Shown: positions 36,886 through 45,538 of the stretch, in pieces
Layout of the letters: each line of letters starts with the position of its first letter
Position numbering within the stretch: the stretch's first letter is position 1
Position numbers and translations under genes: made by a program
Assembly: GCA_964402785.1 (NCBI GenBank)
Contig: CAYODQ010000003.1
Location: forward strand, 9,034 to 73,033
Direction of reading: 5' to 3'
From: an uncultured Planctomycetia bacterium
GTDB taxonomy: Bacteria > Omnitrophota > Gorgyraeia > 2-02-FULL-51-18
DNA: 64,000 nucleotides
The notes under the pieces: model-generated
The model's input: the letters and a program-made list of their open reading frames with translations, nothing else
Databases searched by the model: none
What the model was told of the DNA's origin: nothing

Positions 36886-37176
36886 GGCAGCTCCTGGTTG
36901 AGGGGGTTATTGTAACATGTCAGCTATAACCCAAGAAGCCGGGCGGCGGGTCCTGTAATCGTGCTGAGTTCGGGGTCCTGCCGCTGCGCCAGCTCGTCCG
37001 CCTATGCGGCGGCCAAGCGCTCTGGCTCCGCGTCACCCCTCACCTCGTCCAAATCCTCGCACAACATGGTCCGGTGCCACCTGCTGCTTGGGTTAAATCT
37101 GAAAAAAATCGCTAACGTGTCCCTTTGGGACGGGGTACGGTATTCGACGGACTGCGTCCGGTATGCGGTATGATAG

Positions 37177-38004
37177 CTAATTCGAAACACCATTCTCAAT
37201 ATATATTTGAAAGTTCGTCACCAATAACTCTAAAAAACTCTCTCTTCTTGCTGGATCTGCAGCAATCCCACTAAACCTCGAGATTTCGTTTTTATAGAAC
37301 TGACCATCATAAAGTTCCTTTATCATAGGATGAGCTGCATTACTTACTATGACGTACGCTCCCCTATTACTCAAGCTGGCGGCATATTTAGATAGTCGTA
37401 ATTCATCGATCTGCGAAAACAGCTTTGAGTTATACTTAATAAACCCATTTTTTAAATGGCTTGTCACATAAGGTGGATCAAAATAGACCAAGTCCTCCTT
37501 CTGTGCATCTTTAACGACATCTTCGAAGTCTGCGCAGACGATTTTTGAATTCTTTAGTAATCGACTTGCTTGTCGTAGATGTTCCTCCTGATATACCAGC
37601 TTATCCTTTGTGAGGTTACCGCTAGGCACATTAAAATTTCCTTTATTATTCACTCTATAGAGGCCATTCCAGCAGGTTTTGTTCAAATATATGAAGTATG
37701 CCGCGCGCTTTATGTAGTCTGCTTTCGAGTAGCTATGATCTCTAATTTTATAATATGTGTCTTTATCAACTTGTAGTCTCTTTAGAATTTTTATAACGGT
37801 GTCACAGTGTCTCTTCACCTGCTTATAACAATTGATGAGATCGGGATTCGTATCAGATAGGACTGATTTGGGGGGTTCTAATGCAAAAAATAGACAGCCA
37901 CTGCCTACAAACGGCTCGTAATAGGTCTTATATTCTGGTAGGCGATCCTTAATTAAAGGTGTTAACCATCTCTTTCCGCCTGCCCACTTAAGAAATGATA
38001 GCAT
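37177..38004 (-). CDS. Dam-family N6-adenine DNA methyltransferase
   Basis: LKWAGGKR...FVGSG (motif I) and DPPY (motif IV). Confidence 0.85.
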   Translation of the reverse strand: MLSFLKWAGGKRWLTPLIKDRLPEYKTYYEPFVGSGCLFFALEPPKSVLSDTNPDLINCYKQVKRHCDTVIKILKRLQVDKDTYYKIRDHSYSKADYIKRAAYFIYLNKTCWNGLYRVNNKGNFNVPSGNLTKDKLVYQEEHLRQASRLLKNSKIVCADFEDVVKDAQKEDLVYFDPPYVTSHLKNGFIKYNSKLFSQIDELRLSKYAASLSNRGAYVIVSNAAHPMIKELYDGQFYKNEISRFSGIAADPARRESFLELLVTNFQIYIENGVSN

Positions 38005-38891
38005 TAGAGCTTAATAACCATTTTCTGCCGCGCCCTATAATCTGTTACTGCATCTTCTGATTTTATAGAAGAAACCATATCCGATATTTGTGCAAAAGCC
38101 TCAGCCGAAACCAATCGTCGTAATCGCGCTCTTTCGCTGTCGCCCTTTTTGTTAATTAATGAATAAAATAAATTGTATAATGTTTTGAATTCCGTGTTTC
38201 CGGATATCGATTCCTCCGGCCCTATAGCTCTGTACAATCTAATATTATCCTTGGTAGTTAAGGCAATGCACATATTTGAAAATGCGGTTAATTCGCGCTC
38301 GTTTATTGATGCGCGGAAAAAGTCACGAGATACAGCATCCGGTTGATTTATCGTTTCGTATAAACTGTTCATAAAAGATCGTATGCATTTAATTATAGAC
38401 CCAAACTCCTTTAGATGCTTTGATTTGTCTAAGGCCTTTCCGAGTCTTCCATGAGAGTGCTTCTGTTTAACATTGTGAATATACTCCCTAAATTTTCTTG
38501 GGGAATCTGTTCTGGCGTGGCCATATATCTGCTCCAAGGCCTCATGTGGCAATTGCTTCCTAACTTTCTGCGCTGGGTCAATGAGGGGAAGTATCTCTGT
38601 TAAATAACTTAGTGATCTAATGCCTCCAACATCACGTAAAATATCATCTCTGGACTTCCAAATTGACCTTATCTTATAGCTTCGAAATATAGTAGGCCTC
38701 TTTATTAAGCCTCTGGTTTCTTCTTGCACTGCCCAACCTAATTGATGTGGCTTTTTTACACCCATTTGGAAAAGCTTGTCACCTATTTGCCACAAAGTTT
38801 CGACCTTAGTCCGCGTCGATGACCGGGGATCTCGATAATAATTATTCAAACTTGCAATCTGCGCTATGACATCTTTGGTATTTTTAGTCAT
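38004..38891 (-). CDS. Hypothetical protein (295 aa), operonic between the GHKL ATPase and the methyltransferase
   Basis: No recognisable motif. Its start/stop abuts or overlaps its neighbours. Confidence 0.5.
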   Translation of the reverse strand: MTKNTKDVIAQIASLNNYYRDPRSSTRTKVETLWQIGDKLFQMGVKKPHQLGWAVQEETRGLIKRPTIFRSYKIRSIWKSRDDILRDVGGIRSLSYLTEILPLIDPAQKVRKQLPHEALEQIYGHARTDSPRKFREYIHNVKQKHSHGRLGKALDKSKHLKEFGSIIKCIRSFMNSLYETINQPDAVSRDFFRASINERELTAFSNMCIALTTKDNIRLYRAIGPEESISGNTEFKTLYNLFYSLINKKGDSERARLRRLVSAEAFAQISDMVSSIKSEDAVTDYRARQKMVIKL

Positions 38892-40568
38892 TTATTCTAA
38901 AGTGTGTTCGATTTCTTCGTTAAGAACCGTTGCCGCAAGTTCTTGCTCCAACCGCAAACCCAGATCTATTACATTTGAACCAACCTCAAGCGGAGTAGGA
39001 ACTTTTCCTCTTCGCTCAAATAATTTATGGACACATTCAGGTGAAATAACCATTGATACATAGTTCAATAGCCTTGTATCTAATTTAATCTTTCCTGACT
39101 TACTAGAATTTCGCTTTATAAAATCAGAGTGCTGTGTGTTTATTACTAAAGAATTACCTAGATTTATAACTCTGTCTGCTCCTGCATGATTTTGAAACTC
39201 AATCCGAGGACCCGTCGCTTGTATGGTCTGATCTTTTGATAGGCCTTCCCCCGATGACTTTGATTTTTGTTTATTTCCGCCGCCTTTTTCGTCATCACCT
39301 AGGCCGTTTTTGCCGCCAACCGCAACTTCACCGCCACTCCCCTGATTATTTGGGCCGGAGCCGCCACCTCCAATTTCATCTCCGCCAAATGGAATACTTC
39401 CAAGATCCTCCATAATTTTCTTTTCATACTCTCCGGGCATCGTTGATGGAGCCATTTGTTCGTATTGTAACTTAAAACCGCGCATTATTCTGGATAGGCA
39501 GTCTGACATTATGCTACTTAGCTTCCGAAATGACTCTTGAGTTTTCGAATCCATTACTTTGTCTATTAGGGTTTCAATATCCTTTTGAACCTCCAAGATA
39601 TTTTCATACAACAGATCACGAGCCGGAGAATCCTTTATATCATCCCTCGTAAGATTAGGTGAGCATATATCGTTAATTTCAATAGCACCAACAACAAACG
39701 GATTTGACCAGACCAATATGTCCCTTCCATACTCTCGAGCGTAATTTTTATAACTCTTAAGATCAGCGATACTTTGAATTCTTCTTTGTTTATTGGTTAG
39801 AACGGGAAGTCTATTCTCCTGCACTTTTTCAAGAACTCTCAAATCTATGTTAATTTTCTTTGTCTCATCAGGTAATGATAATGCTATTTCCTTTTTGTAA
39901 GGAGTCCCAGCATATGCGCCGTGGTTAAAGGCCTGGCACTCATATTTTTTTGGGCTGCCGTCGGAAACAAATATCTTTATGATTCCCGCCCTCAGAACAT
40001 CATCAAAATGACGTTCTATCTCGAATACCAGCGCTTTGAGAAATATAGTTTTTTTAAAAACTTGGGGATCGAACTTTGATATCGTGACTCTGGTTCCTGG
40101 CTTATCAAGCTGTTTTCCGTCTGTAATCTCACAAGGCACTTCCACATTCTCGTCAAATGATCTATCGATACGTATTCTGGCCTCATCTGTTCCCTTTTTC
40201 TTACTTATAAATATAGCTTCTTTGGCGAATGCCCTAAAAGCATGTACACCGAATCCAAACTGCCCATTAGCCCAAGGAACTGTCTTTTTCTTCGAGCGAC
40301 CTACCTCCGAAAGAAGCTCTCCCAACTCAGGAGGCGACATCCCGCCACAATTATCTGTAAATGATACTTTCTTACTGACTAGATCTACTTGGATTTCTAA
40401 AATTGGCTTAATTAATTGGCCTTTTTCCTTCCCAATGGATGCAGCATCTACCGCATTATCGATATATTCCATCGCTGCCCTAAAAAAGTCTTTGTAAGTT
40501 CCTGCAATCTGATTCAAGAGCTCGTGTTGGTCACGGATTTTGAGTTTGGTTTTTAAAGCAATTTTCAT
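38892..40568 (-). CDS. GHKL/Bergerat-fold ATPase, MORC/MutL-like (HATPase_c_3 type)
   Basis: N-box EYIDNAVDA, G1 DNCGGM, G2 GQFGFG. Long C-terminal region with a Gly-rich linker. Confidence 0.7.
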   Translation of the reverse strand: MKIALKTKLKIRDQHELLNQIAGTYKDFFRAAMEYIDNAVDAASIGKEKGQLIKPILEIQVDLVSKKVSFTDNCGGMSPPELGELLSEVGRSKKKTVPWANGQFGFGVHAFRAFAKEAIFISKKKGTDEARIRIDRSFDENVEVPCEITDGKQLDKPGTRVTISKFDPQVFKKTIFLKALVFEIERHFDDVLRAGIIKIFVSDGSPKKYECQAFNHGAYAGTPYKKEIALSLPDETKKINIDLRVLEKVQENRLPVLTNKQRRIQSIADLKSYKNYAREYGRDILVWSNPFVVGAIEINDICSPNLTRDDIKDSPARDLLYENILEVQKDIETLIDKVMDSKTQESFRKLSSIMSDCLSRIMRGFKLQYEQMAPSTMPGEYEKKIMEDLGSIPFGGDEIGGGGSGPNNQGSGGEVAVGGKNGLGDDEKGGGNKQKSKSSGEGLSKDQTIQATGPRIEFQNHAGADRVINLGNSLVINTQHSDFIKRNSSKSGKIKLDTRLLNYVSMVISPECVHKLFERRGKVPTPLEVGSNVIDLGLRLEQELAATVLNEEIEHTLE

Positions 40569-40577
40569 TGGATCCTC

Positions 40578-41909
40578 CTAGTTTCCTGCAAGTCGATATT
40601 TTGTCCCACTACCCTCTCCCACACGAACTATTTCCTTTGTGGAAATTAACATACCTAGCAAGCGATAAGTTTTTGGCGGCTTTATTCCGCATTCATATGA
40701 AATTTCAACCGAACTCAATGAGCCTGCCTTGCAAAGGCATTCTCTAATCTGATCTAGATTCTGCATTCTAACTATAAATGCCAATCGTCTTCTTTTTTCA
40801 AAAGCTAGCCTTGATACCTCTGGTAATTCTCTTTTTGGCCTAACAATATTTAATTCGCTCCTAAACGCATCAATCGAGCCCCATAGGCGGCGTATCCTCA
40901 TAGTAAGATACCGCCATCCACTTTTTCTTTGCATTTCAGTGGTTGATGGCACATGTCCAAGTTCTGCTTCGATATTCCTATGAAGCTCAATACACTCATT
41001 CTTTTGAGCATCCAACCTAATCTTTTCAAGTTCATCGTCGGTAATGCCATATGCAGTAAGCAGTTTCTTTAAATATGCGACTGAGATACGGTTTGATTTA
41101 GCAGCTTTACTCAGGCTCATGCCATCTGAATAGCTTTTTATAATCGCTTCTTTGGAAACAAATGGGTACTCATAGCCCGTGTATTTAAATAACCCAAGAC
41201 GCGTACCTTTGACCAAGATCTGCCTAATTCTCTCGCGCGTTAGATCCATAGTTTTGGCGACACTTTCGAGAGTGCCCTGTTGTTCATACAGGTAGAAACA
41301 TTCCTTGTAGAACTTTATCCGGTCTGCCCCAATAACCTGATTTTGAAGATTCTCAAGCGTTTTTGCTTTTGCCGGATATTTTTCTTTGAACTGACCAATT
41401 AGATCGGTCGGATTATTTGTTGATTGAATATTATTTTCGATTTTTGATATTATTTCATCGCTTAATTTCATTCCCAGCTTTAAATCTAATTGGTTAAGAA
41501 AAAATTGAATATCTCTCGCGCATTTTTTTCCTGCATTTTTTTGATTTAATATTCTTTGCTCAGTAAGGCGCACTAAATCTTTAATCGAAACAACCTTGAG
41601 CTTATCAAGACAGTTTCTGACTCTAACGGAAAATAATACTTGGGATACTGGAATTGATAACACTGTCTTCTGATAATCCAGGCTCTCCAATGCGTCGGAG
41701 GCATTCTTTTTATGTATCAGATCTATCGACTTTTTTGGTTTATACTCTTTACAAAATTGACGAATTTCTAATACTGTTTTTTTACCTAAATTTTTTATTG
41801 AATACAGCTTCCTCTCACTCAGACCAAGGCATTCCTCGACTGTTTTGTACCCCGCCGATCTTAGCGCGTTCATAGCACGAACTGACAGATTTGTGCTTCG
41901 AATATCCAT
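40578..41909 (-). CDS. Multi-HTH DNA-binding protein: two RpoA alpha-CTD-like HhH modules + sigma-70 region-4-like HTH + C-terminal wHTH
   Basis: LSVRAMNALRSAGYKTVEEC and VRVRNCLDKLKVVSIKDL (alpha-CTD-like). VAKTMDLTRERIRQILVKG (sigma region-4-like). Confidence 0.5.
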   Translation of the reverse strand: MDIRSTNLSVRAMNALRSAGYKTVEECLGLSERKLYSIKNLGKKTVLEIRQFCKEYKPKKSIDLIHKKNASDALESLDYQKTVLSIPVSQVLFSVRVRNCLDKLKVVSIKDLVRLTEQRILNQKNAGKKCARDIQFFLNQLDLKLGMKLSDEIISKIENNIQSTNNPTDLIGQFKEKYPAKAKTLENLQNQVIGADRIKFYKECFYLYEQQGTLESVAKTMDLTRERIRQILVKGTRLGLFKYTGYEYPFVSKEAIIKSYSDGMSLSKAAKSNRISVAYLKKLLTAYGITDDELEKIRLDAQKNECIELHRNIEAELGHVPSTTEMQRKSGWRYLTMRIRRLWGSIDAFRSELNIVRPKRELPEVSRLAFEKRRRLAFIVRMQNLDQIRECLCKAGSLSSVEISYECGIKPPKTYRLLGMLISTKEIVRVGEGSGTKYRLAGN

Positions 41910-41919
41910 GAGTGCCTAT

Positions 41920-42132
41920 CTAAAGTTTAAAGTGCTTCCGGATCGAAAAGTGAAATTTGGACTTCGTTTCCCTTAGCATTTTTTCTATAGTGGAAAATAT
42001 TTTGTTTATCTCTTCTTCGGTATATTCGTAGGCACTACGGTTGCTACAGTTACCAAGCACCCTTAATTTGTGCATGACAGCATTGGTTCGCTGCTCCGCC
42101 AAGCGTTTAAATCTCTCTCTCTTTGTATTCAT
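41920..42132 (-). CDS. Small (70-aa) protein, paralogue of 42437..42682
   Basis: RFKRLAEQRTNAVMHKLRVLGNCSNRSAYEYTEEEINKI matches KFKRLVEPRVDSTLKKIKIIGNLSSSGYDYTAEQVDKV in the paralogue. Confidence 0.5.
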   Translation of the reverse strand: MNTKRERFKRLAEQRTNAVMHKLRVLGNCSNRSAYEYTEEEINKIFSTIEKMLRETKSKFHFSIRKHFKL

Positions 42133-42436
42133 CCTTAAATAATCTCCTCTAATGTAATAGGAATAACGTATTATACCAATAATATCTAATTACACAATAT
42201 GAATATTATTTTGTACCTCGAACCCATGGCCGTATTAATATGAAAGGATAATCGCCAATGGAGGCGAATATAGTCCAAGAAATTGAGACATTACAACAGG
42301 CGACATTGAAACGCCGACCGGAGGGCAGCGCCCATACCGCACCTCGTTCAAATGAGCAAAATGGGGCTCTTTAACGCAATAAAAAACCACGTCATTCGGC
42401 GTGATTCCATACCGAACGCCGTCCCACCGGGAAGCA

Positions 42437-42682
42437 TCAGAGGCGAAACTTCCCCTCGTCATTGAAGCCTTTTCGGTTTAGGCCTTTTTGGAATTTCTTC
42501 TCGACCTCGTCCACGGCAGACCTGAGGGAGGTGATAACTTTGTCGACTTGTTCGGCGGTGTAGTCGTAGCCGCTGCTGGAGAGGTTGCCGATGATCTTGA
42601 TCTTTTTGAGGGTGCTATCGACGCGGGGCTCGACGAGGCGTTTGAATTTGTCCGCTTTGGATTCTTGCTGATCATCGCCCAT
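42437..42682 (-). CDS. Small (81-aa) protein, paralogue of 41920..42132
   Basis: See the paralogue entry. Confidence 0.5.
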   Translation of the reverse strand: MGDDQQESKADKFKRLVEPRVDSTLKKIKIIGNLSSSGYDYTAEQVDKVITSLRSAVDEVEKKFQKGLNRKGFNDEGKFRL

Positions 42683-42900: not shown

Positions 42901-43434
42901 ATGCCAAAATCTGTTCATGTTTTTGAGAAAATCGAGAGAAGGATCTGCATTGTTAGGGGCAGGAACGTCATGTTAGATAAAGACTTAGCGATTCTGTATG
43001 AGGTGTCGACCAAAGCGCTGAATCAAGCGGTAAGACGAAACTTAGAAAGATTTCCTGAAGACTTTATGTTCCGCCTCACCAATGAGGAGACACAAAATTG
43101 GAGGTCACAATTTGTGACCTCCAATTCGCCAATGCTGATGAGCTTGAGGCGGAACCCCTACGCATTTACTGAGAATGGTGTCGCCATGCTATCCAGTGTG
43201 CTTAAAAGCAAGCGGGCAATACAGGTCAACATTCACATCATGAGAGCCTTTACCCGACTAAGGCAGATCTTAGCGTCTAATGATCTAATACGCCAAAAAA
43301 TCGAAGAACTCGAAAAGAAATACGATAAACATGATGATCAGTTCAAAGTAGTATTTGAAGCTATTCGCAAACTATTAGAAGAGCCCAGAAAAAATCCACC
43401 TAAAAAATCTATTGGGTTTCATGAGAAGTATTAG
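42901..43434 (+). CDS. ORF6N-domain protein (phage-derived DNA-binding)
   Basis: LDKDLAILYEVSTKALNQAVRRNLERFPEDFMFRLT...RSQFVTS...PYAFTENGVAMLSSVL conserved blocks. AGGAGG RBS upstream. Confidence 0.75.
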   Translation: MPKSVHVFEKIERRICIVRGRNVMLDKDLAILYEVSTKALNQAVRRNLERFPEDFMFRLTNEETQNWRSQFVTSNSPMLMSLRRNPYAFTENGVAMLSSVLKSKRAIQVNIHIMRAFTRLRQILASNDLIRQKIEELEKKYDKHDDQFKVVFEAIRKLLEEPRKNPPKKSIGFHEKY

Positions 43435-43644
43435 GACGCACCTTCGTGATATTTGTATCTCATTATAATCACTAAGGTTGCAATCTTGAGGTCACAAATT
43501 GTGACCTCAAACAGGGTTATCTTTTCGCTAGTTTACTTCGTGTCTCGTAGTAAGCATCTGGCGTATTCGAGGAAGTCTTCTCGGAGGGACGCTGGCGACC
43601 CGGAGCGGCCAGAGATGACTTCCTCGAATGCGCCTCGTGCTTAT

Positions 43645-44397
43645 TTATCCGACGATAGCGAAGTCCGCTCGGACGACGGCGTTCACTTTCTTCTCAAGAG
43701 ACGAGGTGTCATTGGTCCCCCAGTCGGAGACATCGTAGGAGTTGACTGGCGTGATCTGGAACACACCCATGCGCGCGGAGCGGATGGCACCTATTTTATT
43801 GCCGCTGGAAGATGCAATTTCTTCAGCGCGTTTTTTGGCGTCTTTGGTGGCTTCTCTTAGCATTTCGATCTTAAGCTCAGCCAGTTTGGTGTAGAAATAC
43901 TGCGGTGCGTCAGATACAAGCTCAATGCCGCGAGTGATAAGCTCCGTCGACTCGCGAGAGACGTCAGTGACTTTGTCCACATCGGCCGATTGCACTTCTA
44001 TGGGCTGGGTGAGGATATAAGCCTCTATCTCGTTGGTGTCGTTGCCTTTTTCATTTTTCTTGTACAGTGTGGTGGTCTGGGTCTGAGCGACGGTGATCTC
44101 GTCTTCCTTCACACCCTTGGAAAGAAGATACTCTTTGACGGCCTTCAAGTCCGCTTGGATCAGGGCAAAAGTTTCCGGCAGAGTCGCTGAGCGCTTGGAG
44201 AAGCTCATGCGCCACACGGTGAAGTCGGAGTTTATTTTCTTCTCAGCAGAACCCGTGACACTCACGACTTCTTTGGAGAATCGCATGGCACCTGTCACGG
44301 CTTTGGACAGGATCACGGTGGACACGATGGTGGCGATGGCGATACACACACCCAACACGACGATCTGTGAATTTCTAAAAAATCCCTGGCCTTCCAT
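43645..44397 (-). CDS. SIMPL/DUF541-domain protein (YggE-like)
   Basis: N-terminal TM helix followed by the SIMPL pattern. Confidence 0.6.
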   Translation of the reverse strand: MEGQGFFRNSQIVVLGVCIAIATIVSTVILSKAVTGAMRFSKEVVSVTGSAEKKINSDFTVWRMSFSKRSATLPETFALIQADLKAVKEYLLSKGVKEDEITVAQTQTTTLYKKNEKGNDTNEIEAYILTQPIEVQSADVDKVTDVSRESTELITRGIELVSDAPQYFYTKLAELKIEMLREATKDAKKRAEEIASSSGNKIGAIRSARMGVFQITPVNSYDVSDWGTNDTSSLEKKVNAVVRADFAIVG

Positions 44398-44407
44398 ACT
44401 TCTCCTC

Positions 44408-45538
44408 CTATCGTTTGAATAGATCCAAATACTCGGTGAATGCGAACATCCTGTTTCGCTTATAACCTGTGACTTCTCTTAAAATTTCATGACGGACGAA
44501 CTCCGCCAAAAGCGTATTCACGGCTGGGTGCGTGAGCCCTATCGCTTTGCACACCTCCTTGGCGTTGACGATCGGATTGGAGAAAAGATGTTTCAAAAGC
44601 TCCTTACCGGATTTGGTGCGCTTACCCAGCGTCATGATGCGGTCTTCGGCGCGATGACGCAAAGCTATGATCTTCTCGAAAGTGGTTTTGCCTTTGAGCG
44701 CTGTCTCGGAGACGCCGTTTAAAAAAAACTTGAGCCAATGATCCATCTCATCGGAGGTTCTCACAACCGTCAGCGCATCGTAATACGCGCCTTTATTCCT
44801 CTCAAAAAAATCTGAGAGATACAAAGTCGGTTTTTTGAGTATCCCCTGCGCCACCAAATACAACGTAATGAGAAGGCGCCCGATGCGGCCGTTGCCGTCC
44901 TGAAACGGATGGATGGTCTCGAATTGATAGTGACTGATCGCTATCCGGATAAGGTGCGGCATATGGATCTGGCGGTTGTGCCAAAATCTTTCCAGATCAC
45001 CCATGAGCTCAGGCACTTCACTTGCATGCGGCGGGATAAAAAATGCGTCACTTGGCCCGGAGCCTCCTATCCAATTTTGTCCGGTGCGGATCTCTCCAGG
45101 GGTTTTGTGCTGGCCGCGGGCATTCGACATAAGTGTTTTGTGAGTTTCTTTTAGCATGCGGCTTGATAACGGCAGGCTCTCGAGCTGACCGATAGCACTG
45201 TTCATCGCGAGCGTATAATTTTGTACTTCTTGCCAATCATCATGCCGCTCGGGATTTACTTCTTCTTTGGGCAAGAGCGCATCATCCATCTCGGTTTTGG
45301 TGCCCTCGATGCGGCTGGATGCTGTGGCTTCTTTAAAAACGTGCATACGGATAAAAAAATCCACGTCGGGGACCAGAGTGGAGTAAGCATTTAATTCGCC
45401 CAGGTTTCTGTTGGCTTCTTCCAAAAGAAGGTCGATCGCTGGGTCCTGCCATTTGTATCCAATATCAATGGGATAGGGCGAGAAGCACTTGTACTGGTAC
45501 TGCTGTTTGAAAACTCCTGCTTTGAATTTCTTTTCCAT
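44408..45538 (-). CDS. Fic-family protein (AMPylator-like) with C-terminal wHTH
   Basis: HPFQDGNGRIGR Fic motif. Confidence 0.85.
   Translation of the reverse strand: MEKKFKAGVFKQQYQYKCFSPYPIDIGYKWQDPAIDLLLEEANRNLGELNAYSTLVPDVDFFIRMHVFKEATASSRIEGTKTEMDDALLPKEEVNPERHDDWQEVQNYTLAMNSAIGQLESLPLSSRMLKETHKTLMSNARGQHKTPGEIRTGQNWIGGSGPSDAFFIPPHASEVPELMGDLERFWHNRQIHMPHLIRIAISHYQFETIHPFQDGNGRIGRLLITLYLVAQGILKKPTLYLSDFFERNKGAYYDALTVVRTSDEMDHWLKFFLNGVSETALKGKTTFEKIIALRHRAEDRIMTLGKRTKSGKELLKHLFSNPIVNAKEVCKAIGLTHPAVNTLLAEFVRHEILREVTGYKRNRMFAFTEYLDLFKR

Follow-up and report, generated by a model that had tools for sequence, protein, structure and literature searches.

A conserved AT-rich gene cassette with a GHKL ATPase and a 70-residue leader protein, a candidate for an uncharacterised defence module

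The window, meaning the whole stretch of 64,000 nucleotides that was analysed, contains a cassette of five minus-strand genes, which encode a small leader protein (s70), a putative DNA-binding protein (aCTD443), a GHKL ATPase, a protein of 295 aa (p295) and a Dam/DpnM-type methyltransferase (MTase). The gene set is a real co-conserved cassette rather than a case of mere adjacency, and many uncultured bacteria carry it in their defence islands and prophages. As the earlier note on this DNA had supposed, it maps to no named system, with only generic domain matches in PADLOC 2023, NCBIfam 2026 and Pfam 2025. The best explanation, to which about an even chance is given, is that the cassette serves defence or MGE conflict as a module not yet characterised, with a MutL/MORC-like ATP clamp being directed onto DNA.

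The six open reading frames described in the earlier note were all recovered on the minus strand, at the same coordinates, in an ORF check of the window. Five of them form an operon within an AT-rich, horizontally acquired island (37177..42250, minus strand, end approximate) delimited by a GC break. From s70 through to MTase the five genes have a GC content of 0.383-0.402, and the value falls to 0.28 in the promoter region, compared with 0.551 in the adjoining OYE gene and 0.489 in the remaining window. This AT-rich composition and the sharp borders (0.38-0.40 inside vs ~0.49-0.55 in the flanks) show that the island was acquired recently by horizontal transfer. The tight packing noticed earlier was confirmed by arithmetic from the ORF coordinates and the printed sequences: s70 is followed after 10 nt by aCTD443 and after a further 9 nt by GHKL, which abuts p295 (TAAATG), and p295 overlaps MTase by 1 nt (TAATG). 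A promoter-like element upstream of s70 (42170..42197, minus strand), read from the sequence, consists of TTGTGT, a 16-nt spacer and TGgTATAAT (extended -10), and is followed by an AGAGGAG ribosome-binding site and ATG; it was missed by a consensus scan because its -35 matches at only 3/6 positions, and it is the predicted promoter of s70. The sixth gene, s81 (42437..42682, minus strand), had been counted in the low-GC set, which holds for the other five genes but not for s81, whose GC of 0.524 is host-like. Since it is also parted from s70 by the promoter-like element and by a terminator-like hairpin downstream of s81 (42267-42252), s81 probably lies outside the imported island, and five genes, not six, were imported. 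The cassette is framed by an imperfect 18-nt inverted repeat with a left arm TGGGACGGGGTACGGTAT (37126..37143, plus strand) and a right arm TGGGACGGCGTTCGGTAT (42409..42426, minus strand) that match at 16/18 positions (E 0.009, for a search space that was small; significance uncertain). Two further CGGTATG copies lie behind the left arm, and an extra GCGGTATGG lies ~70 nt inward of the right arm. The right arm is situated in host-GC DNA ~160 nt beyond the GC break and therefore may not mark the island end.

In other genomes, where the earlier note had wanted co-conservation checked, the gene order is kept at no fewer than 12 separate loci, which belong to Omnitrophota, Planctomycetota, Patescibacteria and Nitrospira. 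The order [s70]-sigma4 protein-GHKL-p295-[Dam], with bracketed members optional, was found in L001-L008, L021/22, L024-L028, L037/38, L040 and L042, and the adjacency of GHKL and p295 survives down to 26-30% identity (L009-12, L016, L020, L030, L049 and L093). The GHKL ATPase itself (558 aa; 38892..40568, minus strand) matches PF13589 (HATPase_c_3) at 1.1e-8, and the Bergerat motifs noticed earlier (EYIDNAVDA, DNCGGM, GQFGFG) are part of a full set of GHKL motifs I-IV (ExxxNxxD, DxGxG, GxxGxG, GT). Residues E34/N38/D41, D72/G76, G102-G107 and G158/T159 are invariant among 54 sequences and in the clade at 26-30% identity. The protein being intact and conserved, its interpretation as a histidine kinase or a pseudogene, a doubt raised in the earlier note, was rejected. 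The explanation that the locus is a chance neighbourhood or has decayed, for example with an orphan Dam gene next to a broken histidine kinase or a MutL pseudogene, draws on nothing except the missing annotation; it is refuted by the co-conserved order and the intact, conserved GHKL, and its probability is negligible.

The Bergerat fold of the GHKL protein (residues 1-200) is followed by a transducer-like domain (200-310) in the place of the second, S5-like or middle, domain, a long helix (315-364), a disordered Gly-rich linker of ~80 aa (371-451) and a conserved C-terminal domain (455-548). With its 80-aa disordered linker, this layout is MutL-like. The C-terminal domain has a beta-hairpin followed by xH[PST]DFx[ED]R with an invariant H480, along with R466, R486, R499, Y503 and E541; this His is the only invariant one, and no metal-binding triad is present.

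The gene for p295 (38004..38891, minus strand) always lies immediately 3' of the cassette's GHKL family. The protein is all-alpha and basic (pI 9.9), and it is rare, with 107 clusters in 1.84e9 proteins. It had been described as lacking any recognisable motif, and it gave no match in Pfam, NCBIfam, PADLOC or PHROGs; only W34, G37, R65 and P102 are conserved, with no conserved catalytic residues. Domain-library searches likewise bore out that the cassette encodes no recognisable nuclease or helicase; no recognisable effector was found in it either, and its conserved neighbours also include no SFII helicase or nuclease. The cassette could still be an ordinary DpnII-like Type II (or MutL-endonuclease-like) restriction-modification (R-M) system with a nuclease too divergent to be recognised, for which p295 and the GHKL C-terminal domain are the candidates. 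This is unlikely, as p295 has no nuclease fold, neither protein matches a nuclease family or fold (MutL_C, HNH and PD-(D/E)xK included), and the GHKL C-terminal domain has the single invariant His described above. In addition, at 11 or more loci p295 and GHKL have no methylase linked to them, which counts against a restriction endonuclease (REase) because the combination would be lethal with a methylation-sensitive enzyme.

The MTase (275 aa; 37177..38004, minus strand) is a D12-class, Dam-family N6-adenine methyltransferase, as first read, with matches to PF02086 (1.5e-55, 189 bits, cutoff 22) and TIGR00571 (1.6e-73, 247.7 bits, cutoff 114.85). Its catalytic DPPY (in VYFDPPYV) and AdoMet-binding FxGxG (in EPFVGSG) align with those of DpnM and E. 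coli Dam, with which FLKWAGGK, NGLYRVN and FNVP are also shared. DpnM is its best PDB match (1.1e-52; E. coli Dam 1.4e-34), and since both relatives are GATC enzymes, the MTase is probably GATC-specific. It scores better against the PADLOC model MTase_II (5.4e-80) than against oMTase (4e-63), which suggests an R-M-type rather than an orphan enzyme. GATC is depleted in neither the host nor the island, an observation uninformative about restriction either way. The description of the module as methylation-linked stands for one branch only: the MTase accompanies GHKL-p295 in 10/12 close-clade loci (it is absent from L001 and L024) and in none of ~9 distant-clade loci, and the methylase type differs by branch, with Dam here and Dcm in L039 and L044. 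The methylase is outside the deep core of the cassette, and given these absences, methylation is not a general principle of self/non-self distinction.

The two alpha-CTD motifs and the sigma-70 region-4 helix-turn-helix (HTH) proposed earlier for aCTD443 (443 aa, pI 9.7; 40578..41909, minus strand) were recovered by PF03118 (RNA_pol_A_CTD, 2.2e-27, two stretches) and PF04545 (Sigma70_r4, 2e-6), and alpha-CTD structures were matched in the PDB. The alpha-CTD copies occupy residues 2-55 and 80-150 and the sigma-70 region 4 HTH residues ~208-235, followed by a C-terminal winged HTH (wHTH). Among its relatives the C-terminal 240 aa are conserved, and the N-terminus is variable (alpha-CTD, TPR or none; L024, L026). 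In L032 and L116, GHKL, Sigma70_r4 and Bac_DnaA_C are fused in a single protein, which connects the ATPase with DNA binding of the sigma4 type.

The small genes had been treated as peripheral, a view that was overturned: no other part of the cassette is as conserved or as widespread as s70 (41920..42132, minus strand), through which the cassette is connected with a far larger group of GHKL-type operons. The protein is helical and basic (70 aa, pI 10.2) and has no match in Pfam, NCBIfam or PADLOC. It has at least 968 clusters of homologues, and its identity is 56-59% even at loci where that of GHKL is only ~28%. At least 540 metagenomic loci carry a confirmed s70 homologue, nearly always directly 5' of a GHKL-type protein. 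In 42 of the 52 s70-led metagenomic loci with sufficient downstream DNA, a GHKL domain was detected by HMM within 1.5 kb, and 8 further loci encode a protein of 600-680 aa with GHKL-like motifs (truncated to 199 aa in L073). On this basis a class of s70-led GHKL operons was defined in this analysis, in which the gene for a GHKL-type protein directly follows s70 on the same strand, an arrangement that the window cassette shares. It is a new finding that the s70 family almost always heads divergent GHKL-type proteins, including those of the PADLOC candidate PDC-M33 (1e-209) and a 621-aa type beside Gabija, where the s70-led operon is directly 5' of that system. The paralogy claimed for s70 and s81 was upheld; with 33% identity and a shared family HMM (2e-40 and 7e-25, respectively), sequence comparison marks them as true paralogues. 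Here s81 is an orphan without its own GHKL, as the window holds a single GHKL, p295, sigma4 and MTase gene. Many s70-GHKL pairs come from CPR bacteria with small genomes, and there they could conceivably do housekeeping work.

The conserved-order loci adjoin integrases, CBASS, GmrSD and type I R-M genes. In the window the cassette neighbours SoFic (1.7e-117) and PDC-S05 (PADLOC); elsewhere it is flanked by a prophage recombinase and CBASS (L027), lies near GmrSD and HsdR (L024), GmrSD (L016) or DndB (L020), or has a tyrosine integrase abutting s70 (L021), and neighbouring genes also matched Dnd, Ssp, HEC-06 and type IV REase. The cassette family is nearly missing from IMG/VR (two distant matches only) and was not found in 72,556 plasmids or 50,697 phage records, so the evidence tying it to MGEs comes from just a few loci. 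An MGE-encoded epigenetic or transcription-control module, serving lysogeny, element maintenance or superinfection control and not strict immunity, is a rather improbable reading of these data. In it the alpha-CTD/sigma4 protein would act at promoters by competing with or mimicking RNA polymerase modules, the GHKL clamp together with p295 would silence or organise element or host DNA, and Dam would be an orphan epigenetic regulator. Against this stand the R-M-like scores of the MTase, the occurrence of the cassette away from recognisable MGE genes (the window itself being an example), its repeated proximity to bona fide defence genes, and N-terminal alpha-CTDs that are dispensable or swapped for TPR. 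A role in housekeeping-like DNA transactions, with s70 as a small nucleoid-associated protein and GHKL as a MutL/MORC paralogue for chromosome organisation or methyl-directed repair, spread by horizontal transfer, seems very unlikely. It would suit the tiny, basic and extremely conserved s70, found across phyla, the s70-GHKL pairs among housekeeping genes in streamlined CPR genomes, and the echo of methyl-directed mismatch repair in a Dam and MutL-like ATPase pair; it fits poorly with the patchy, rare spread of p295, the recently acquired island, the varying accessory genes, the adjoining integrases and defence systems, and the fact that neither a MutS- or MutH-like partner nor a MutL_C domain was found.

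In the preferred defence or MGE-conflict module, a single promoter 5' of s70 would drive five translationally coupled genes, whose products would probably assemble into a complex in fixed ratios. The MTase would methylate GATC in resident DNA as a self mark. The two minor-groove alpha-CTD modules (helix-hairpin-helix), sigma-4 HTH and wHTH of aCTD443 would bind DNA, p295 may be a second, basic helical DNA-binding adaptor, and both would direct GHKL onto unmarked DNA as it enters. ATP-driven N-terminal dimerisation of GHKL, whose C-terminal domain possibly dimerises as in the MutL layout, would close a clamp on the DNA and block replication or transcription, and the cassette may stop foreign DNA without cutting. 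As no nuclease is recognisable, the block could be non-degradative (BREX- or MORC-like), or could rely on a host nuclease or on a cryptic active site within the C-terminal domain of GHKL. The s70 protein would be a conserved leader subunit or regulator common to many GHKL-type operons. Counting against the module are the loci lacking the methylase, ~10 GHKL-p295 loci lacking s70, and the missing effector. A bolder and rather improbable extension is that the cassette is an elaborated branch of a large, unrecognised, nuclease-free immune class of ~70-aa leader plus GHKL clamp ATPase, in which free-standing copies of the RNA polymerase alpha-CTD and sigma region 4 would detect foreign DNA or an attack by phage on RNA polymerase, and ATP-driven DNA entrapment would then silence the invader. 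If true, this class would be a bacterial counterpart, and possibly an ancestor-like relative, of eukaryotic MORC/SMCHD1 silencing.

Among known systems, Mza (mzaABCDE), reportedly described by Gao et al. in 2020, is likewise a multi-gene defence-island operon with a sigma-70-family HTH protein (MzaA) and a MutL-like GHKL ATPase (MzaB), but the cassette proteins do not match the MzaA-E models. The Mza nuclease is MzaD (bioRxiv 10.1101/2022.06.16.496414). Prokaryotic MORC/paraMORC proteins combine GHKL and transducer domains in mobile, sporadic R-M-like operons with DNA methylases, and are predicted to manipulate DNA by ATP in restriction (Iyer, Abhiman & Aravind 2008, PMC2292703). The cassette is similarly mobile and patchy and encodes GHKL and transducer domains with a methylase, but it lacks the SFII helicase and/or nuclease partner of MORC operons in the sense of those authors. 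BREX, especially type 2 / Pgl, has a methylation-marked, apparently non-nucleolytic exclusion logic like that proposed for the cassette, and PglW contains an alpha-CTD/sigma4-like segment (residues ~790-945) to which aCTD443 is similar (PADLOC 9e-10, NF033442 1e-8), although with 33.4 bits against a cutoff of 990. No PglW kinase, PglX, PglZ, BrxC/PglY or other BREX model was matched by the cassette proteins, and the methylase is of the small Dam type, not PglX. Methyl-directed mismatch repair is the Dam-MutS-MutL-MutH pathway. It shares with the cassette Dam methylation (at GATC, as predicted for the MTase), a MutL-architecture GHKL (head, flexible linker, C-terminal domain) and DNA-binding partners, whereas the cassette has no MutS or MutH homologue, is mobile and AT-rich in a defence-island context, and its GHKL has no DNA_mis_repair (PF01119), MutL_C (PF08676) or endonuclease motif DQHA(X)2E(X)4E. 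DpnII-type Type II R-M has the MTase most similar to that of the cassette and a presumed common GATC specificity, but the cassette has no DpnII/MboI-family or other recognisable REase and has 3-4 extra conserved genes. PDC-M33 (A/B/C, with C = DUF6339), an uncharacterised PADLOC candidate, is led by an s70 homologue in Priestia, Deinococcus and a C. innocuum temperate phage, and its first large protein has Bergerat-like motifs by eye (hhalign P 0.007). It differs in its downstream partners, its PADLOC definition leaves out the s70 gene, and its A/B/C models match no window protein. Eukaryotic MORC and SMCHD1 are work-alikes only; the cassette has no CW, coiled-coil or SMC-hinge domain and is instead a bacterial operon with its own predicted DNA-targeting subunits.

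All six minus-strand ORFs described in the earlier note are present. In reading order they encode s81, an 81-aa protein (42437-42682), the 70-aa leader protein s70 (41920-42132), the 443-aa protein aCTD443 (40578-41909), a 558-aa Bergerat-fold GHKL ATPase (38892-40568), the 295-aa helical protein p295 (38004-38891) and an N6-adenine methylase, MTase (37177-38004). By coordinate arithmetic, the five genes from s70 to the methylase are closely packed: the first two junctions are gaps of 10 nt and 9 nt, the third pair abuts and the fourth overlaps by 1 nt. Their GC contents are 0.383-0.402 and that of the 118 bp 5' of s70 is 0.28, compared with 0.551 for the adjoining OYE reductase gene and 0.489 for the remaining window. 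The s81 and s70 proteins are 33% identical and are both matched by the family HMM, so their description as paralogues was correct, but s81 has a host-like GC of 0.524 and lies outside the AT-rich island, which therefore holds five of the six genes first assigned to it. A terminator-like hairpin (42267-42252) and a promoter-like element lie between s81 and s70 and, together with the GC of s81, delimit an imported island of five genes at approximately 37177-42250. A promoter was predicted by eye 5' of s70 (TTGTGT, 16 nt, TGgTATAAT, then the RBS AGAGGAG); a sigma-70 promoter scan gave a result no better than chance, and an Rfam search gave no match. The search for repeats at the island borders found nothing beyond an imperfect 18-nt inverted repeat, TGGGACGG[G/C]GT[A/T]CGGTAT, at 37126-37175 (plus strand) and 42330-42432 (minus strand), with extra CGGTATG copies nearby on both sides of the island. 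Within the window this repeat is confined to the island flanks, and it may represent recombination-site remnants or chance (E 0.009 in a small search space).

The methylase is a D12/Dam family protein (PF02086 1.5e-55, TIGR00571 1.6e-73) with the expected DPPY motif. Among solved structures it is closest to DpnM (1.1e-52), then to E. coli Dam (1.4e-34), and keeps FLKWAGGK, NGLYRVN and FNVP, so that its target is likely GATC. The window contains 585 GATC sites against 248 expected from base composition (Markov estimate 494), indicating that the host does not avoid the probable methylase target. The GHKL protein has HATPase_c_3 (1.1e-8) as its sole Pfam match, and its profile gave only weak Hsp90/TopoVIB matches among PDB sequences. 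Its homologues form about 146 clusters, nearly all of 553-562 aa and nearly all metagenomic, and motifs I-IV are invariant, also in a distant clade at only 26-30% identity. In the AF2 model (pLDDT 74.7) the Bergerat domain leads into a second alpha/beta domain and a helix of 50 residues, beyond which lie a disordered Gly-rich linker of about 80 residues and a C-terminal domain made of three strands and helices. The cassette is a mobile, translationally coupled operon with an intact GHKL ATPase of MutL-like layout.

As the earlier note had claimed, aCTD443 carries two RNA polymerase alpha-CTD domains (PF03118 2.2e-27; PDB matches) and a sigma-70 region 4 HTH (2e-6), followed by a C-terminal wHTH. 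The alpha-CTDs keep, by eye, the R265/N268/G296/K298-type DNA-contact residues. Conservation is concentrated in the C-terminal 240 or so residues; in one related locus (L024) TPR takes the place of the N-terminus, and in another (L026) the N-terminus is missing. The s70 protein (pI 10.2) could not be assigned to a family: it has a single weak Pfam match to HEPN/DUF4145 (E 0.0069), with RxxxxY where RxxxxH is expected, and haemagglutinin matches of its profile among PDB sequences were judged spurious. A HEPN relationship and an RHH-like nature are both speculative possibilities for s70. The p295 profile had no credible match among PDB sequences, and its comparison with the helical proteins of about 210 aa found 3' of other s70-linked GHKLs gave hhalign P 0.024, which makes them candidate homologues at most. 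Two conserved proteins of the cassette can be placed in no family or fold, and its DNA binder is assembled from modules by which RNA polymerase recognises promoters. With such a binder and a methylase, control of transcription or epigenetic state in a mobile genetic element comes to mind, and next to the defence genes found around related loci it is an unlikely explanation. Scans of all cassette proteins against PADLOC, NCBIfam, Pfam and PHROGs returned generic domain matches only. Three basic DNA-binder-like proteins are combined with a Dam/DpnM-like methylase, and no recognisable nuclease or helicase is present. A conventional restriction-modification system, in which this methylase would be paired with a cryptic nuclease, most plausibly sited in the GHKL C-terminal domain, is rated as quite improbable.

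Related loci, given L numbers here, include 20 found when GTDB species genomes were scanned with the GHKL alignment; more came from exact-protein look-ups and a metagenome scan. The order [s70]-sigma4 protein-GHKL-p295-[Dam], in which the sigma4 protein is the homologue of aCTD443, recurs at no fewer than 12 distinct loci of the close clade, which belong to Planctomycetota, Omnitrophota, Patescibacteria, Nitrospira and unclassified MAGs. In all close-clade loci with this order p295 lies directly 3' of GHKL, and the same pair occurs in the distant clade (L009-12, L016, L020, L030, L049, L093); the sigma4 protein is present in every close-clade locus except L008. Chance adjacency or a decayed locus is refuted, and mere adjacency, the possibility that the earlier note had held against its own proposal, is ruled out for GHKL-p295-sigma4. 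The expected co-conservation extends only in part to the methylase, which 10 of the 12 close-clade loci have (missing in L001 and L024/25, upstream in L008) and no distant-clade locus has. Since most relatives lack it, methylation is an add-on of the window's branch and not a general discriminator. Two loci, L032 and L116, encode GHKL fused to Sigma70_r4 (2.7e-13) and Bac_DnaA_C (1e-22), which by Rosetta-stone reasoning ties the ATPase to DNA binding of the sigma4 type. These fusions, in which the GHKL head is followed by Sigma70_r4 and a DnaA C-terminal (DnaA-box-binding) HTH, are of 931-947 aa (L032/L033 6885-9680; L116); s70 and a protein of about 210 aa precede them, and a PIF1-like helicase follows in L116. 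Three distant-clade loci are a two-GHKL variant of the system, in which a second, different GHKL (HATPase_c_3 5.8e-25, about 505-530 aa) lies directly 3' of the p295 homologue (L012 12571-14085; L016 9749-11335; L020 12476-14011).

The s70 leader exceeds the other cassette parts by far in conservation and spread, with at least 968 clusters of homologues and at least 540 relatives confirmed in the metagenome scan, and it is almost always directly 5' of a divergent GHKL-type protein. Among 52 loci having at least 1.5 kb downstream, a same-strand GHKL was detected by HMM within 1.5 kb in 42 (39 at E < 1e-20). A further eight encode a 600-680-aa protein in the GHKL position (199 aa, truncated, in L073) with ExxxNxxD, DxGxxG and GxxGxG-like motifs, on which Pfam is silent (hhalign P 0.006 for one type); of the last two, one has a broken ORF and the other an IS insertion. 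Because about 10 GHKL-p295 loci are without s70, s70 implies a GHKL-type partner and the reverse is untrue. Partners in s70 operons include a two-gene type of about 790 aa (at least 12 loci), a type with an interposed protein of about 210 aa (12 loci), Dcm methylases (L039, L044), a PIF1 helicase (L116) and DUF6339 (L100). A GHKL search of 72,556 plasmids and 50,697 phage records found no match, whereas s70 does match in these records. It heads PADLOC candidate PDC-M33A/B/C (1e-209, 1e-81, 2e-94) on Priestia megaterium and Deinococcus plasmids, and a 621-aa GHKL-like protein (Pfam 0.003; hhalign P 1.4e-4) on A. tumefaciens pAtK224b and D. shibae pDSHI06, the latter type lying directly upstream of Gabija (GajA 8e-221, GajB 3e-178). 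In a temperate C. innocuum phage s70 lies near the integrase, with an M33A-like protein next. Synechococcus phages carry a lone s70-like gene (S-CRES3, L121 5001-5252, and 11 other cyanophage records); in these lytic phages it is 36-38% identical, lies among small early-type genes without a GHKL partner, and may represent a decoy, an anti-defence gene copy or the same fold put to an unrelated use. The s81 gene is likewise an orphan without its own GHKL, in host-GC DNA just beyond the island, and L005 has a second s70-like copy (2453-2674) followed by a serine recombinase and, 5.7 kb later, by the cassette; cassettes may insert or be exchanged at sites marked by genes of the s70 family. No mention of PDC-M33 or DUF6339 was found in the literature searched.

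Adjoining the island, at window positions 42901-45538, are ORF6N (PADLOC candidate PDC-S05, 1.3e-59), SIMPL/DUF541 and Fic (SoFic model, 1.7e-117) proteins, which make up a small defence island of their own. Elsewhere the cassette lies between a serine recombinase with DUF2924 and CBASS (SAVED, SMODS), ParB-MTase and terminase genes (L027/28), s70 is abutted by a tyrosine integrase (L021/22), or HsdR and GmrSD lie upstream (L024/25); GmrSD also occurs at L016, DndB at L020 and Fic at L012. PADLOC matched Dnd, Ssp, HEC-06, type IV REase and mad3 among 137 neighbour proteins, a tally of matches and not a measure of enrichment. With these neighbours on one side and a Dam-like methylase and MutL-like ATPase on the other, a housekeeping-like DNA transaction system is considered very unlikely. 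In the closest relative (L021 13380-16912; GHKL 86% identical) two genes come after the methylase, one for a 233-aa protein that weakly matches a pPIWI-associated nuclease (2.5e-5, below cutoff) and one for a 944-aa protein without family; they may form an additional effector module or belong to a different system.

There is about an even chance that the cassette is a defence or MGE-conflict module, of the GHKL-ATPase, methylase-linked kind seen in defence islands. Under this defence reading, Dam would mark resident GATC sites, aCTD443 and p295 would bring the ATPase to unmarked DNA, and dimerisation driven by ATP would form a clamp that blocks use of that DNA, with s70 as a putative shared leader subunit or regulator. 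Its core includes two family-less proteins, and a previously unrecognised leader ties the cassette to a much larger uncharacterised set. If the cassette defends, it would offer a tractable bacterial model of DNA silencing by MORC/SMCHD1-type ATPases and a second non-degradative, methylation-marked exclusion mechanism besides BREX. With at least 540 metagenomic loci, the leader offers an easy sequence marker by which a whole group of related operons can be found. Many of these are in CPR bacteria, about whose defence repertoire little is known, and experiments are made feasible by relatives on plasmids of cultivable Priestia, Agrobacterium and Dinoroseobacter.

To our knowledge, the only GHKL systems that have been tested contain nucleases (Mza, GHKL-Shedu). 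Among the closest by theme is Mza, which reportedly pairs a sigma-like protein with a MutL-like GHKL. Its nuclease is MzaD (bioRxiv 10.1101/2022.06.16.496414), whereas the cassette has no recognisable one, and the cassette proteins gave no match to Mza models. GHKL ATPases were predicted in 2008 to act in restriction-like systems (PMC2292703), and the MORC/paraMORC restriction-modification operons described by Iyer et al. 2008 (PMC2292703) have as their defining feature helicase and nuclease partners, which are missing here. GHKL-Shedu/paraMORC3 (PMC12137116) was rejected because the cassette lacks the DUF4263 nuclease. CapK/CapS, an anti-sigma-kinase-like GHKL kinase with a STAS repressor (PMC13373217), was also rejected, as the GHKL here belongs to the Hsp90/MutL class and p295 is wholly alpha-helical. 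BREX type 2 has in common with the cassette only a PglW-like alpha-CTD/sigma4 segment, DpnII restriction-modification only the methylase, and PDC-M33, an uncharacterised PADLOC candidate, only the s70 leader. Membership in Mza, BREX type 2 and PDC-M33 fails, as does that in the MORC/paraMORC operons with regard to partner genes; for a DpnII-like system, no cognate endonuclease was recognised beside the methylase. The earlier view that no named system fits still stands. The proposed logic would be similar to that of Dam-MutL-MutH and, like that of BREX and MORC, non-degradative.
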